DNA of 64,000 nucleotides, taken from positions 64,001 through 128,000 of the forward strand of contig CAMAPH010000002.1 of assembly GCA_945859975.1 (NCBI GenBank), read 5' to 3'. How positions within the stretch are numbered: position 1 is the first letter of the stretch; every line of letters starts with the position of its first letter. The position numbers were made by a program, and so were the translations under genes. The notes under the pieces were generated by a model. It saw only the letters and a list, made by a program, of their open reading frames with translations. It did no database searches and was not told the origin of the DNA. This DNA is from Chthonomonas calidirosea (lineage in GTDB: Bacteria; Armatimonadota; Fimbriimonadia; Fimbriimonadales; Fimbriimonadaceae). Of this stretch, positions 44,933 through 57,350 are shown in pieces.

Positions 44933-46081
44933 TTGGCAGGAGTAGCGTTCAAAAGCGTAACAAAGGTGTACGGTAAGGACGTCAAGGCGGTCAGCGACCT
45001 CAACCTCGACATCCAAGATCAAGAGTTCATGGTCCTCGTCGGGCCTTCAGGCTGCGGAAAAACCACCGCCCTGAGAATGATCGCCGGCTTGGAAGAAGCG
45101 ACCGGTGGAGACATCATGATCGGCGACGTTCGCGTCAACGACGTTCCGCCAAAGGATCGAGACATAGCGATGGTTTTCCAAAACTACGCGCTCTATCCGC
45201 ACATGAACGTGTACGACAACATCGCGTTCGGTCTTCGGCTTCGAGAACTCAAGAGCTTCTTCTGGCAAATCACCCATTTGGCCGAAGCCAAGACGATCAA
45301 GGAAGACATCGACAAGCGGGTCAAAGAAGTTGCCCGTATGCTGGACATCGAGAAGTACCTCCATCGAAAGCCGAAGGAACTCTCAGGCGGTCAACGACAG
45401 CGTGTCGCTCTTGCGCGAGCCATCGTCCGAAAGCCGAAAGTCTTCTTGATGGACGAGCCGCTATCGAACCTGGACGCAAAGCTCCGCGTTCAAACTCGAG
45501 CCGAGCTCATTCGACTTCACCGCCAGCTCGGAATCACGACCGTATATGTCACCCACGACCAGGTCGAGGCCATGACGATGGGCCAGCGAATGGCCATCAT
45601 GCGCGACGGCATCCTCCAGCAGTGCGATCAGCCTGAAAAGGTCTATCAGTACCCGGCAAACAAGTTCGTTGCGGGCTTTATCGGCTCTCCTCCGATGAAC
45701 TTCATCGATGCTGAGATTCGCATGGAGAACGGTGTCGCGATTGTTGACGCCGGGGAGTTCAAGCTTCCGGTGCCAGATGGCAATCCTGCAGCTCACATGA
45801 GCGGCAAAAAGATCACCCTCGGCATTCGCGCTGAAGACATTCACGACGCTGCCATTCCAAGCAACGTGGTTGCGACCGATGCGAATAGCGTCCAGGCAAC
45901 CGTTGACGTAATGGAACCACTCGGCCACGAGTACGTTGCTTATCTGAAGATCGGCAAGATCAACCTAGTTGCTGCCATCAGCAACGAGAGTAAGGTCCGC
46001 GTCACCGAAGTCGCCAAGTTCGTGGTCAACCTTGACCGCGTACACCTCTTCGATGCCGAGACCGAACAGGCAATCCGCTAA
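44933..46081 (+). CDS. MalK/MsmX-type sugar ABC transporter ATP-binding protein
   Basis: GPSGCGKT, LSGGQRQ, MDEPLSNLD, C-terminal OB domains; no permease genes adjacent. Confidence 0.95.
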   Translation: MAGVAFKSVTKVYGKDVKAVSDLNLDIQDQEFMVLVGPSGCGKTTALRMIAGLEEATGGDIMIGDVRVNDVPPKDRDIAMVFQNYALYPHMNVYDNIAFGLRLRELKSFFWQITHLAEAKTIKEDIDKRVKEVARMLDIEKYLHRKPKELSGGQRQRVALARAIVRKPKVFLMDEPLSNLDAKLRVQTRAELIRLHRQLGITTVYVTHDQVEAMTMGQRMAIMRDGILQQCDQPEKVYQYPANKFVAGFIGSPPMNFIDAEIRMENGVAIVDAGEFKLPVPDGNPAAHMSGKKITLGIRAEDIHDAAIPSNVVATDANSVQATVDVMEPLGHEYVAYLKIGKINLVAAISNESKVRVTEVAKFVVNLDRVHLFDAETEQAIR

Positions 46082-46095
46082 GAAACCTGAATCCT

Positions 46096-46134
46096 AAAAG
46101 CGCGAGGTGAACCTAGGTTCCCTCGCGCTTTTTT
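46096..46134. terminator. bidirectional intrinsic terminator
   Basis: AAAAGCGCGAGG...CCTCGCGCTTTTTT. Confidence 0.88.
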
Positions 46135-46147
46135 GCGTCTTCTGTTT

Positions 46148-46343
46148 CCCCTAAGGGCGACGACGGGACTGACCGCGGGAAGAGTCTTGATGTTTAAGGT
46201 TTGAGGATTGAAGTCACGAACTTTGAGTTTTGAGGCCATAGGCCGCTTGATCAGGTTCAATGATTCTTGTCAAGAATCAGCCAGGATTCGATGTTGATCG
46301 AAGGTGCTAAGTCAGTCGTATTCCGTCAATCGCCCTTAGAGGC
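46148..46343 (-). ncRNA. candidate ~200-nt structured ncRNA with a heptanucleotide repeat tract
   Basis: Long terminal helix CCTCTAAGGGCGATTGACGG / CCGTCGTCGCCCTTAGGGG extended by GACTGACT/GGTCAGTC, whose mismatches are G-U on the minus strand; internal hairpins; TYAANNN repeats; TAGAAT -10 box at 46355-46350. Confidence 0.7.
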
Positions 46344-46363
46344 GGCTTCATTCTATCGGTTTT

Positions 46364-46813
46364 TCACTCGGAAAACTCAATGGAAACGGTGGCGTTGTGC
46401 TCGTCCAGACGATCCTGAAGTTCGTCGATCTCCGCTTCAAGCCGCGATACTTCTTCTTCGACTTCGCGGGCGGAAAGGGTCGCGATGTACTCCTGCGGTT
46501 CCTGCATTCCGTACGGTTGCATGAACTTTCCCGACGTGGTCGGAATCCTCCGCAAGAAGCTGATGTGACTCTTCAGTTCCCCGATGCGATAGATCGTCTC
46601 CTGAATCGGAGCATTGGCGAGGCTAATTGCCGCTTTCAATTTCACGAGCGCCTCAGTTGCATTTCGGAGTTCAGCGAGACTTGCCGCCACATCAAACTCT
46701 TCCCTGCCGCCAACGAGGCGCGAATTGTGAGCGGTCACGATGCCCTGAAGCTTTTGAATCTTCGCCACTTGGCGATTCTTGAGCTTCAGGGCTTTCGCGA
46801 GCGAGATTGCCAT
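46364..46813 (-). CDS. DIP1984/DUF6847-like coiled-coil protein
   Basis: 149 aa: MAISLAKALKLKNR..., LVKLKAAISLAN, EIDELQDRLDEHNATVSI; ATG overlaps the upstream TAA and sits 6 nt after TACCGT. Confidence 0.8.
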   Translation of the reverse strand: MAISLAKALKLKNRQVAKIQKLQGIVTAHNSRLVGGREEFDVAASLAELRNATEALVKLKAAISLANAPIQETIYRIGELKSHISFLRRIPTTSGKFMQPYGMQEPQEYIATLSAREVEEEVSRLEAEIDELQDRLDEHNATVSIEFSE

Positions 46814-49344
46814 TACTGGACGGTAACCCAGACCGATGTGCTCGCCGAACCGAACTGAACGGTTCCGCGGGTGAACTTCCAGCAGGACTGATAGAGGCCA
46901 ACGGTGTTCGGCGCCGTGAGTCGAGCCTGAACCGTGATCGTTTGGCCAGGTGCAACGTTGCTTCCGGGCGGCATTCCGAGGCGGCTCTTGCCGAATGTGG
47001 TCGACCCCACGGGCATTGAGGTCAGCGCAAGGCGCTGCACATCCGCCGAGGTCCAGTTCTGCGTACCGGCGTTTCGGAACGTGAACGCGACCGTGAAGAC
47101 TTGCCCCGGTGCGACCGTGTTCGGAACCTGCTGGGAAACAAACGCGGCATCCCATTCGGTGTTGACCGACATTGGGACCGAAATCGTCGTGGTCGTTCCG
47201 TTACCGTTGGTAACCGTTAGCGTTGCGTAGAGTTTTGCGCTAGGCGTGATAGCGGCATGATTCAGCACGACTTCATTGCTGGTCGGAGCAATTTCGGTGT
47301 TCGCGACAACATCGCCTGCGCCAGCCGTTCGACCAATCTTGATCTGGTACTTCTCGATTCCCGTCTCGGTGTCGTATGCCCAGAGCTTGAATCGAGTCGC
47401 CGAGTAGGCGCCACCCGTCGGGACGCCTTCCCAGTTGGAAAAAGCAAATCGATCCACGATCGGCGCGGTGTCATCACCGGTGTAAGTTCCGCACCAGAAG
47501 TCCGTCGCCGGTGCATCGCTGCCCGAAATGACTTCGACGCGCCGGACCTTAGTCTTCCCAAAGGCCACCGCGGTTACGGTGTACATGCCCGGTGCCAGCT
47601 GGTCGTATCGGTACGTACCGTTAGCAAGCGTCGAGGTTTGGTAGGTGATCGTGCCACCGTCCTTCTTAGCGCGAACCGTAGCGTTGCCTTGTGCAGTGCC
47701 TTCGTTGTAGACGATTCCTTCGATTGCCCCGGCGGTAGCTCCTCGGGAGTCCGCATCCTGCAACAGATAGTAAGCATCAAGCGAGCCGTAACCCTGGTGG
47801 GTCTCCCAAGAGCCTTTCGGTGCGCCGTACACGCTCAGTGCCGACCGCTGCAAGGCTCGATAGGCCCGAAGGTTCTGCATGCCCTGAGCTCGATCCATAT
47901 CGTTCTTGCCGTAGTACAAGCTTGCCGCGCCCGCGACGATCGGGCTCGCCATCGATGTTCCAATCAAGTAGCCGTAGCCAAGGTCATATCCTGGCGCCCC
48001 GACGTCCATGATCGGGTTATGGGTGGTCATCGTGGTGGAGTAGATGTACGCCAGCATCGCGATCGGGTCTTCGATGTTGCTGTAATCGAGGATGATGTTT
48101 CCTCCTGGTGCAGCGAGGTCGATGTACGAACCGGTTCCCGCGTAGTAGTCCGAGGCATGGATGTAGCCGTAGCCGTTCGCGGTGACCGCGAAAGCGCCAC
48201 TGCAAGCCGCAGGATAAATCGGCCCTAAGTCACCGCCACCGGCGCCGTCCTCGTTACAAGCCACCACGACGAGGACTCCCTTCTGCCAGGCGTAGGTCAC
48301 CGCGTCCTGGAAGAGCTGCGAGAAGTTTTCCGTGCCAAGGCTAAGGTTGATGATGTCCACGCCATGATCGGTCGCGTAGAAAATCGCGCCCGCCGCATCG
48401 GCGTCTGAGCCGTTTCCGGTGTCATCGAAAACGCGGAGATTGATTCCCTTGCTTGGATAGCCGAGCCCGACGATTCCCTTTCCGTTCCAGTTTCCGTTGT
48501 TCCCAGAAGCAAGGGCAAGTCCGGTGACGTGAGTGCCGTGCCCCATCGCATCTTCGGTGGATCCTTCTTGCAGAACTTCGCCAAAGCTGAACTGGGCGTC
48601 CAGGCTCAAATCGAACTGCCCGCCTTCTTCGATGCTGCTGTCAAATCCCCCGGCGTTGATGAAGTCCGGGTGTTGTCGCTCAACTCCGGTGTCGATGACC
48701 GCGATCATCGGCACGTTCTGTGGTTTGTCGGCGCTCGTAAACCATCGATTGGGCCAATCGTTCCAAGCATCGAAAGCGCTGGTCTCGTCGAGATACCAGA
48801 GCCGGCGATACGTGACGCCCTCTCCGAGCGGAATCATTGGCTCTCCGATTTCAATAACGTTCCAGTCCCCGTCATTGGGCTCTGGCAAGAGCGGATAAAT
48901 TTTGTTGAGCGGCTGTGCCGCCACGACGTTTGGTTTGCCCTTCAGGCTTGCCGCGACCGCCTTGGGATCCTCGCCCTTTCCGAGTTGCCATACCGTCCAG
49001 CCGGACCGCTGAATCCGGTTTCGAAAATTCTCGGAGCGCAATCCGGTAGGCACAAAACGAGCGCGCGTCGCTTCGGTTTTCGTTAGCTCTGCCGCAACCT
49101 TGGTCGGAAACTTGACCAAAACGTAGCCAGGAACGATCTCGTTCTTGCGCTTCGCGGGAATGTTTCGCTTCAAGATGCTTCGCAAAACCAATCCCAGTGG
49201 TTTCGGTGCAAAAATAGAAACGGCCGGATTACCGATGACTCGGCTTCTCCGTCCTAGCGATTCGCTCACGGGACCAACGGTCTGGGCGGGAGCAACGGCA
49301 ACCAGAAATAGGCTTGCAGCCAAACTCAAAACTCTAAAATTCAT
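46813..49344 (-). CDS. secreted S8 serine peptidase with C-terminal Ig-like domains
   Basis: Triad VIDTG / HGTHV / GTSMASP; terminal DAAFVSQ...RNAGTQNW domain. Confidence 0.92.
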   Translation of the reverse strand: MNFRVLSLAASLFLVAVAPAQTVGPVSESLGRRSRVIGNPAVSIFAPKPLGLVLRSILKRNIPAKRKNEIVPGYVLVKFPTKVAAELTKTEATRARFVPTGLRSENFRNRIQRSGWTVWQLGKGEDPKAVAASLKGKPNVVAAQPLNKIYPLLPEPNDGDWNVIEIGEPMIPLGEGVTYRRLWYLDETSAFDAWNDWPNRWFTSADKPQNVPMIAVIDTGVERQHPDFINAGGFDSSIEEGGQFDLSLDAQFSFGEVLQEGSTEDAMGHGTHVTGLALASGNNGNWNGKGIVGLGYPSKGINLRVFDDTGNGSDADAAGAIFYATDHGVDIINLSLGTENFSQLFQDAVTYAWQKGVLVVVACNEDGAGGGDLGPIYPAACSGAFAVTANGYGYIHASDYYAGTGSYIDLAAPGGNIILDYSNIEDPIAMLAYIYSTTMTTHNPIMDVGAPGYDLGYGYLIGTSMASPIVAGAASLYYGKNDMDRAQGMQNLRAYRALQRSALSVYGAPKGSWETHQGYGSLDAYYLLQDADSRGATAGAIEGIVYNEGTAQGNATVRAKKDGGTITYQTSTLANGTYRYDQLAPGMYTVTAVAFGKTKVRRVEVISGSDAPATDFWCGTYTGDDTAPIVDRFAFSNWEGVPTGGAYSATRFKLWAYDTETGIEKYQIKIGRTAGAGDVVANTEIAPTSNEVVLNHAAITPSAKLYATLTVTNGNGTTTTISVPMSVNTEWDAAFVSQQVPNTVAPGQVFTVAFTFRNAGTQNWTSADVQRLALTSMPVGSTTFGKSRLGMPPGSNVAPGQTITVQARLTAPNTVGLYQSCWKFTRGTVQFGSASTSVWVTVQ

Positions 49345-49424
49345 GGGCAGAACCAATCCTCAGAGAGAGTTTAACGGAAAAAAGTCAAAAGACCAACCAT
49401 TCCTCCCCCAGAACGTTAGCCTTT

Positions 49425-57065: not shown

Positions 57066-57350
57066 ATGGCAAACCTGAAGTCAAGCAAGAAGGATATGCG
57101 ACGAAGCCGACGAAAGTCGCTCGTCAACAAGTCGGTCAAGAGCGCGCTCAAGACCTACATCAAGAAAGTTAAGGTCGCGGCCGCAGTTGCCGCTCCGGAT
57201 GCTGACGCGATTCAGAGCGCCCTTACCCTCGCGGTGAAGGCACTGGACAAGGCTGCTCAGAACGGAACGATCCACAAGAACCAGGCGGCACGCCGAAAGA
57301 GCCGAATTGCCAAGGCTGCAAACGCTGCCAAAGCTAAGCTCGCTGCCTAA
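57066..57350 (+). CDS. rpsT: 30S ribosomal protein S20
   Basis: MANLKSSKK, IHKNQAARRKSR. Confidence 0.97.
   Translation: MANLKSSKKDMRRSRRKSLVNKSVKSALKTYIKKVKVAAAVAAPDADAIQSALTLAVKALDKAAQNGTIHKNQAARRKSRIAKAANAAKAKLAA

Follow-up and report, generated by a model that had tools for sequence, protein, structure and literature searches.

RNAs that bear short repeats and have a protein partner are a kind already known. A passage on HutP (PMC2425495) describes a hexamer each of whose faces binds three XAG motifs set apart by 4-nt spacers. By that account the motifs of the Bacillus subtilis hut terminator RNA are single-stranded and recur at a 7-nt period, each being bound by one subunit; the element reported here has the same period, and part of its units are predicted to be single-stranded. 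The precedent shows that a 7-nt register suits an oligomer. The systems differ in that HutP recognizes XAG at three plus three sites in a 5' leader and acts on termination, whereas here approximately eight KCAAR sites lie 3' of a gene. HutP is furthermore not a helical bundle, shows no homology to the protein encoded beside our element, and is absent from the titles of the 50 listed Foldseek matches of that protein. A HutP-type binding site was rejected, the period being shared but the KCAAR motif and the position 3' of the gene being different.

The trp leader RNA of the TRAP system carries 11 (G/U)AG repeats, as stated in an excerpt of PMC3064811. There, too, short repeats stand in a row, wrapped in the case of TRAP around a protein ring; the motif, the 5' leader location and the protein fold all differ from what we find, the TRAP-bound RNA is not free-standing, and no homology links the two systems. 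The spacers between TRAP repeats are 2–3 nt long, shorter than those here, and a TRAP-type binding site was rejected on both motif and spacing. CsrB and RsmZ are small RNAs whose many short motifs titrate a protein. They are not encoded beside the gene of that protein, whereas the present element does lie beside a protein gene. Their GGA motifs are found mostly in hairpin loops (PMC6546359). Since no such Rfam match was obtained and the repeats here are CAA-based, a sponge of the CsrB/RsmZ type was rejected as well.

GOLLD and ROOL are presented in part of one account (PMC12286853) as non-coding RNAs of phages and prophages, of unknown function and often near tRNA islands. They appear there as far larger molecules (many GOLLD RNAs exceed 800 nt), ornate and RNA-only cages, with no known protein partner. 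Membership in either family was rejected because no Rfam match was found and the element measures 142–228 nt compared with more than ~500 nt; only the tRNA-array surroundings are common to them.

Three further systems were compared with the locus. The omega RNAs of TnpB and IscB are encoded at the 3' end of the protein gene, and a single transcript supplies the protein together with its RNA partner; the nucleases so encoded are guided through base pairing of that RNA. The gene-then-RNA layout is alike, but the present element contains no sign of a guide segment. Type III toxin-antitoxin RNAs consist of repeats of tens of nucleotides (~34–45 nt) upstream of an endoribonuclease gene. An RNA of this type was rejected, as the units here are 7 nt long, lie downstream of a gene for a helical protein, and are accompanied by no significant PADLOC match. 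Cyanobacterial STRR sequences are heptanucleotide tandem repeats. These and the arrays that we encountered in sister genomes (described below) share with the element a 7-nt period and an intergenic location, and the sister-genome arrays also share its TCAA core, but they comprise many near-identical units, are multi-copy and are independent of the gene, whereas the element has approximately eight unlike units held in a fixed register and closed by a stem. A simple heptanucleotide tandem repeat was rejected given that Tandem Repeats Finder (TRF) makes no call, that the element is single-copy and that its register is conserved across phyla.

A search of window positions 45800-46700 against Rfam 15 with E up to 10 returned chance rows only (best 18.6 bits compared with a threshold of 80), no family reaching its gathering score was located at the element in 16 related loci, and positions 1880-2180 of locus L043, again searched with E up to 10, gave one chance row. 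A literature search found no paper describing this gene or this RNA.

A heptad array within a structured RNA

The window is the whole 64,000-nt stretch of DNA analysed here, and coordinates without a locus name refer to it. The element lies on its minus strand, directly behind a DIP1984-like gene; facing it is the convergent gene of a MalK-like ABC ATPase, whose end is at 46081. The features are as follows.

46364..46813, minus strand: DIP1984-like gene, 149 aa (coding sequence 46813..46367, stop codon TGA 46366..46364)
46148..46342, minus strand: complete RNA element of 195 nt, bounded by the two arms of the outer stem, from the fold
46310..46342, minus strand: 5' arm of outer stem P1, three stacked helices, from the fold and as an inverted repeat
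46148..46174, minus strand: 3' arm of outer stem P1, from the fold
46342..46329 with 46161..46148: P1 helix of 14 bp
46327..46323 with 46166..46162: P1 helix of 5 bp
46317..46310 with 46174..46167: P1 helix of 8 bp
46287..46302, minus strand: small internal hairpin of 6 bp with a 4-nt loop, from the fold
46261..46279, minus strand: perfect 9-bp inverted repeat
46234..46255, minus strand: conserved box before the array together with a clade-specific hairpin, from alignment A6
46244..46234, minus strand: the clade-specific hairpin, 4 bp
46184..46233, minus strand: heptad array with an 8-nt third unit, from direct reading and TYAA counts
46177..46183, minus strand: closing unit UCUUCCC, corresponding to the family's CUCWU array end, from the family alignment
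46175..46255, minus strand: stretch matched by core model R1 (42.9 bits, E 1e-11)
46092..46132, no strand set: hairpin of 16 bp in the minimum free energy (MFE) fold, preceded by an A-run and followed by a U-run

Read directly on the minus strand, 46233..46184 resolves into seven consecutive units (7+7+8+7+7+7+7 = 50 nt), of which five begin with TCAA and one with TTAA, while the 8-nt third unit begins with TCGT. The first-pass annotation had described seven units, six of them starting with TYAA; the sequence agrees exactly, and nothing else in the window or in simulations equals it. Six TYAA occurrences in 50 nt constitute the maximum of the window on both strands (64 kb; next best 5), and 100 simulated 64-kb sequences (first-order Markov) had maxima of 3 (24 runs), 4 (73 runs) or 5 (3 runs), with none reaching six. 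The longest TYAA chain at 7/8-nt spacing has four members in the array, compared with two (84 runs) or three (16 runs) in the simulations. The second densest TYAA cluster of the window, five in 50 nt at 57124-57175 on the plus strand, has no 7-nt period. TRF at a score of 30 does not call the array as a tandem repeat.

Folding of the intergenic interval 46366..46085 (282 nt) yields −96.9 kcal/mol, with a z-score of −5.6 and none of 200 shuffles as good; this result and the contigs recovered inside the element from four RNA libraries (see below) bear out the proposal of a structured RNA at this position. The outer stem starts 21 nt after the stop codon of the DIP1984-like gene. The probability of being unpaired is 0.64 in the array compared with 0.30 elsewhere, and the description of the array as single-stranded is correct for units 1, 4, 5 and 6 (P > 0.85) but not for units 2–3 and 7, which are predicted in helices. 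Specifically, UCUUGA at 46275..46270 pairs in the MFE fold with UCAAGA at 46190..46185, in unit 7, a pairing with which the 9-bp inverted repeat competes, and units 2–3 pair with 46266..46251 in the ensemble computed for the window. The box preceding the array has the family consensus GAUnCCGA, is conserved as sequence, and occurs in the window in its GAUC version at 46252..46249. Two hand-proposed helices joining the GAU box to units 2–3 were rejected as traits of the family, since 53% and 48% of cells were paired, no better than in slid controls.

The hairpin at 46092..46132 is probably a bidirectional terminator common to the convergent genes; a consensus scan did not list it as a terminator, and the same scan found no promoter-like site. 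Folding energy in the window gives no preference to the gene strand (−68.3 compared with −76.5 kcal/mol, the opposite strand being slightly better); the gene strand is taken as the RNA strand on the basis of gene orientation, the strand-specific CAA periodicity and the G-U pairs present in other clades. Several other assignments were tried and rejected: the small 60-aa ORF at 46260..46078 as the role of the array, because a 7-nt period is not coding; coding across the core, because 7 of 36 loci have no open frame there; and the ends of a MITE or transposon, because the element is single-copy in its own 3.1-Mb genome.

The adjacent gene and its companion RNA across genomes and phages

Upstream of the DIP1984-like gene lies an S8 subtilase gene (847 aa, 49356..46816, minus strand), whose stop codon overlaps the ATG of the DIP1984-like gene in the sequence TAATG (46811-46815). 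Translation of the two genes may be coupled through this overlap; at other loci the subtilase is not kept as a neighbor. The 149-aa protein aligns end to end (5-143 of 149) with NCBIfam DIP1984_fam NF038048 at E 4e-8 and 33.5 bits, under the cut-off of 70, and scores 19.3 bits with Pfam DUF6847 (PF20935), under the cut-off of 27, PF20935 being annotated on some close homologues in precomputed tables. An AlphaFold2 model computed with 37 homologues (pLDDT 94.7) consists of three long helices and a small sheet. Its top Foldseek match is 3kdq (E 5e-4, probability 1.00, TM 0.71/0.70; next match E 0.45), that is DIP1984, a Corynebacterium diphtheriae protein of unknown function and the only significant match among solved structures. 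The modeled fold thus suggests that the protein forms a distant branch of the DIP1984 family; by sequence, with profile A1, the solved structures gave only coiled-coil noise.

Residues K7, A8, L9, K12 and N13 are invariant in 37 sequences, and the basic N-terminal motif is the most conserved stretch of the protein. Homologues fall into at least 1458 clusters at 90% identity (E <= 0.001, 8000 candidates scored), and nearly all of the named clusters go by ‘hypothetical’; viral sequences make up 86–98% of the nearest ESM Atlas clusters, which serves as a lead only. PHROGs contains no significant family for the protein, and PADLOC returned no significant match, its sole row being LmuB at E 0.004 for one of four proteins. 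A four-copy homo-oligomer prediction (alignment A5) scored 0.67 compared with 0.50 for the control and is counted neither for nor against an oligomer. Among the literature matches listed for DIP1984, DUF6847 and septicolysin, only ‘septicolysin’ occurs and none concerns the function of the protein.

A scan for relatives of the gene, using one genome per species, yielded 56 loci. By label these belong to Fimbriimonadaceae (the group of the window), to Gemmata, Fimbriiglobus, Singulisphaera, Paludisphaera and other Planctomycetota, to Verrucomicrobiota, and to a few oddly labeled bins; the cultured planctomycetes Paludisphaera soli JC670 and Singulisphaera sp. Ch08 carry the locus. At nearly all loci the stop codon is followed by the same order of parts, namely a stem arm, variable hairpins, a GAUnCCGA-like box, approximately eight heptads, a CUCWU end and the second stem arm. 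Clustering of all ORFs from 52 grouped genome loci revealed no other protein-coding neighbor conserved across clades.

The first-pass annotation had named period-7 autocorrelation downstream of homologues as the check on its heptads, and such autocorrelation is present. In 330 nt downstream of 52 homologous genes, CAA-CAA pairs number 95 at lag 7 (shuffles 3.3 ± 1.9), 84 at lag 14, and 49 and 42 at lags 21 and 22, while the opposite strand is flat with 2 pairs at lag 7; the corresponding z-scores overstate the signal because the loci are related, and the loci span at least three phyla. The periodicity is visible by eye in each grouped clade. A strict YAA chain at 7/8 spacing is only 1–2 units long in 18 of the 52 loci, arrays contain approximately eight units, and in most clades, including that of the window, the third unit is 8–9 nt long. 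Across 163 YAA-core units taken from 33 representative sequences the consensus is KCAARVY, and all seven positions are biased: position 1 has mostly U (67%), otherwise chiefly G (29%); at position 5, G (47%) and A (32%) together make up 79%; U falls to 6% at position 6; and C (56%) and U (25%) account for 81% at position 7. The last three bases of the proposed TYAANNN unit, at first read as variable, are in part constrained throughout the family.

R1, a sequence-only covariance model of the core, was built from the 33 sequences of alignment A6, which include 32 of the genome loci and no viral locus. Searched against 78 sources (542,608 nt, both strands, E <= 1, default filters), it gave 69 matches, each in a different source and each on the strand of the gene. 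Besides the window, the sources matched were 53 of the 56 genome loci and 15 of the 21 viral ones. Matches whose position was checked lie within a few hundred nucleotides of the stop codon, except at L080 (~900 nt). Among the three genome loci missed, one has 28 nt left and two have a partial or weak protein match; among the six viral misses, five retested with filters off gave 5.9–6.9 bits or nothing downstream, and the sixth, L078, has the same downstream units as L077. In a set of 41 relatives, each of the seven gene-bearing genomes carries an R1 match beside the gene. Apart from the array locus, no place in the window's whole genome matches R1 with an E-value better than 0.009. Window and genome G014 have the same array, letter for letter, while bases close to it differ.

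Two loci deserve separate mention. The gene copy of genome G015 (L017, G015:C142:4572-4988) has three TGA and one TAG codons in frame and is followed by an RNA core scoring 32 bits; these stops reflect either recent decay or read-through. In a bin labeled as a delta-proteobacterium (L060), matches to a group II intron domain and a SAM_alpha riboswitch (965-1104 and 1478-1553) lie just upstream of the module.

The RNA measures 160–230 nt. The distance from stem to stem is 142–228 nt in 25 other loci, the two shortest values arising where the stem finder took the inner part of the stem, and the 5' half around the small internal hairpin varies in length and sequence between clades. The arms of the outer stem have unrelated sequences between clades and are complementary within them; in a cross-phylum full-length alignment (A7) the core aligns well but the arms do not. 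A test based on the longest uninterrupted stem, crude in that shuffle means are ~9 bp, found that the stem was equaled by no more than 5 of 100 shuffles at 29 of the 55 loci and by none at 13. RNAduplex energies of the arms had a median z of 0.2 relative to shuffles, an uninformative comparison, since arms rich in G and in C still pair with each other once shuffled. Consensus folds computed for each clade contain a long outer stem, with many G-U pairs in the Planctomycetaceae-type set that fit the gene strand. Compensatory changes in these folds are few (5 of 65 pairs and 6 of 46 pairs), as each clade is shallow, and RNAalifold applied to the core of 33 sequences predicted 0 pairs.

The gene is also present on 21 IMG/VR viral contigs, several of them 134–340 kb long. 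In five whole viral records (1.07 Mb in all), three of which are rated 100% complete at 165–221 kb, R1 found one match each in three records, always just downstream of the gene. The gene is likewise carried by two GenBank ‘uncultured phage’ records (462 and 595 kb), where weak core matches with UUAA-type heptads come directly after it. Same-strand tRNA genes, as many as 19 in one locus, are found no more than a few kb from the module at ten Verrucomicrobiota-type and five viral loci. The packing can be tight: several loci leave ~30 nt between a tRNA and the start of the gene and a few nucleotides between the end of the element and the next tRNA, and at L043 these gaps are 34 nt and, measured from the 3' arm of the outer stem, 5 nt.

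The anticodons found near the module (L043, L048, L062, L069, L074, L075 and L079) include Phe-AAA, Ile-TAT and Ile-AAT, and the same arrays contain a suppressor-type tRNA (CTA) as well as one call whose anticodon has four bases; unusual anticodons are typical of mobile or phage tRNA sets. Three contigs labeled Bifidobacterium, Bifidobacteriaceae and Sulfotelmatobacter (L033, L064 and L069) bear a Verrucomicrobiota-type module and the tRNA order of L043 and L048, and may be mis-binned mobile or phage DNA. Gene and RNA travel as one module among Armatimonadota, Planctomycetota, Verrucomicrobiota and jumbo phages.

Recovery of the element from RNA libraries

Six metatranscriptome runs share a small part of a 1.2-kb query, and four of them, from four studies, were examined. 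In all four runs a whole contig of 151–161 nt falls inside the element, with two differences each.

46151-46303, 46164-46303, 46158-46309 and 46164-46324, no strand: spans of the four RNA-library contigs
46151..46324, no strand: span covered by these contigs

Contigs of the flanking ABC gene from the same runs have 9–11 differences in ~180 nt, and the sole contig reaching the DIP1984-like gene (46695-46880), which covers its 5' end and the 3' end of the subtilase gene, has 15 differences in 186 nt. In the four runs the coding sequence is uncovered at 95% likeness or more, the terminator is uncovered, and no contig lies on 46105-46145; uncovered parts of the query were not counted as absence. 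Two runs end at 46164, one of them against adapter-like letters. The contig ends fall within the outer stem, where 46324 pairs with 46165 in the fold, a weak hint of cutting by a double-strand-specific nuclease. In one run the word depth, a weak measure, was 15.4 for the RNA contig compared with 2.9 for the coding-sequence contig of a relative.

Contigs cannot prove the ends, strand or abundance of an RNA, and RNA libraries may carry DNA; within those bounds, the recovery of just this piece in four studies is as expected of a stable, excised small RNA. We hold with high confidence that the element represents a family of RNAs that is conserved, transcribed and linked to the DIP1984-like gene.

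Possible roles of the element

R1 also matches plain tandem arrays of near-identical TCAA-type heptamers in other Armatimonadota (L131 at G017:C56:20800-21300, L132, L133, L134, L135, L136 and L098-L107). These arrays reach ~420 nt and ~60 units, with up to 29 R1 matches in one genome; they are intergenic, often right after a stop codon, and some are paired with inverted copies. They occur in seven genomes of the sister genus and in several others of the Armatimonadota, in which the search did not find the gene, and a protein profile run on five simple-array genomes gave no match in four and a weak match in one. They match only the array part of R1, and they lack both box and gene. In the window's own genome the only period-7 tandem repeat of at least four copies (TRF, 5.1 copies) lies outside the window at C8:58474-58509; it is of the CTCAAAG type and a weak R1 match (E 0.009). 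The window's array is not a microsatellite, yet its motif is a microsatellite unit in this lineage, so that the earlier contention that the repeat is unlike slippage microsatellites is right for the array but wrong for the motif. Either another factor reads TCAA heptads or slippage favors them, and the existence of simple arrays without the gene lowers our confidence in the neighboring protein as the heptad reader.

The best explanation of the locus, to which we give an even chance, is a small RNA, ~160–200 nt long here and closed by a stem, whose heptads would offer serial docking sites to the co-encoded protein; we would put the mechanism at an even chance or slightly under it. The gene and the RNA would be co-transcribed, given only 21 nt between stop codon and outer stem, and the RNA would then be cut out at that stem; its excision and accumulation apart from the mRNA would account for contigs that cover the element and not the coding sequence or the terminator. 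The exposed heptads would constitute a row of equivalent docking sites, one for each subunit of an oligomeric RNA-binding protein, and the simplest candidate for that binder would be the DIP1984-like protein with its conserved basic N-terminal motif. We conjecture that the resulting particle would probably have its target in tRNA or translation during phage-host conflict, because the module is found repeatedly inside same-strand tRNA gene arrays. What was first read from the DNA is upheld in part. A structured RNA lies here, its heptads are its most conserved part and keep their period at related loci, and it is tied to the adjacent gene for a helical protein; docking on that protein, as a ring or filament, is offered here as a proposal. 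Against this explanation stand the simple arrays in genomes where the gene was not detected, the RNA that G015 keeps beside a gene with four stops, the viral and genome loci that R1 does not match, the predicted pairing of units 2–3 and 7, and a folding energy that does not single out the gene strand. The fullest version would be a new ribonucleoprotein in which approximately eight copies of the DIP1984 fold, or four dimers, line up along the KCAARVY heptads of an RNA cut from tRNA-operon transcripts, spread by jumbo phages and kept by several phyla, and acting on tRNAs or the translation machinery in infection; all of this jointly we regard as doubtful.

The RNA may instead be linked to the gene while a different factor reads the heptads, be it a nuclease, an enzyme that handles tRNAs, or a protein of host or phage that binds single-stranded RNA, with the RNA serving as decoy, sponge or guide and the DIP1984-like protein acting elsewhere in the same pathway. 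TCAA heptamer arrays in genomes where the protein was not found point in this direction, as do the RNA that G015 keeps beside a broken gene, the embedding in tRNA arrays with its suggestion of RNA-processing surroundings and, as a weak measure, the greater word depth of the RNA contig (15.4 compared with 2.9 for a relative's coding contig). Such a factor leaves unexplained, however, why the RNA holds its fixed place after one gene while other neighbors change, no candidate partner is conserved nearby, and we consider it unlikely. The close placement of several loci between tRNAs (~30 nt before the gene, a few nucleotides after the element) would also suit a cis-acting 3' untranslated element of the DIP1984-like mRNA with no free-standing function, whose outer stem protects the message after the flanking tRNAs are cut away and whose repeats tune stability or translation, possibly through protein feedback. 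The 21-nt gap is too short for a promoter of the RNA's own, the scan detected no promoter-like site, and the terminator comes after the element, all as a cis element would have it. Nevertheless, the RNA contigs lie on the element only, neither on the coding sequence nor on the terminator, and a protective stem would need neither eight conserved heptads nor a conserved box; a purely cis-acting role appears to us quite improbable.

Were the protein harmful, the repeats could hold several copies of it inactive and release them on infection, as in type III systems. The position of a repeat-bearing RNA beside a small gene, in phages and mobile DNA, would be in keeping with such an antitoxin-like partner, as would the largely viral ESM Atlas clusters (86–98%, a lead only), but 7-nt units, an RNA placed after the gene and not before it, and a helical bundle with no nuclease match and no significant PADLOC match render it very improbable. 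Hardly credible, and already disfavored, is a decayed heptanucleotide tandem repeat common in the lineage and devoid of a function of its own. Long simple TCAA-core arrays in sister genomes and one small array in the window's own genome speak for decay; against it, the element is single-copy in that genome and its array escapes a TRF call, the unit count and the long third unit are the same across phyla and phages, the array is identical in the window and G014 while nearby bases differ, and RNA contigs cover it.

The DIP1984/DUF6847 family is large and has a solved structure in 3kdq, and a conserved RNA partner supplies a testable handle on its function. The RNA joins GOLLD and ROOL in phage tRNA islands, but with an obvious candidate protein, which makes reconstitution straightforward; and since the locus is present in cultured planctomycetes, experiments are possible without cultivating the organism of the window. 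If the fullest version, with the new ribonucleoprotein, is true, it would provide the DIP1984/DUF6847 (‘septicolysin’) family with its first function and, alongside GOLLD and ROOL, would add a third class, dependent on protein, to the RNAs of tRNA islands. The element would constitute a new class among RNAs with repeats and a protein partner if the particle is real, and a fixed row of approximately eight 7-nt sites would newly exemplify, beside TRAP and HutP, an oligomer that measures RNA.
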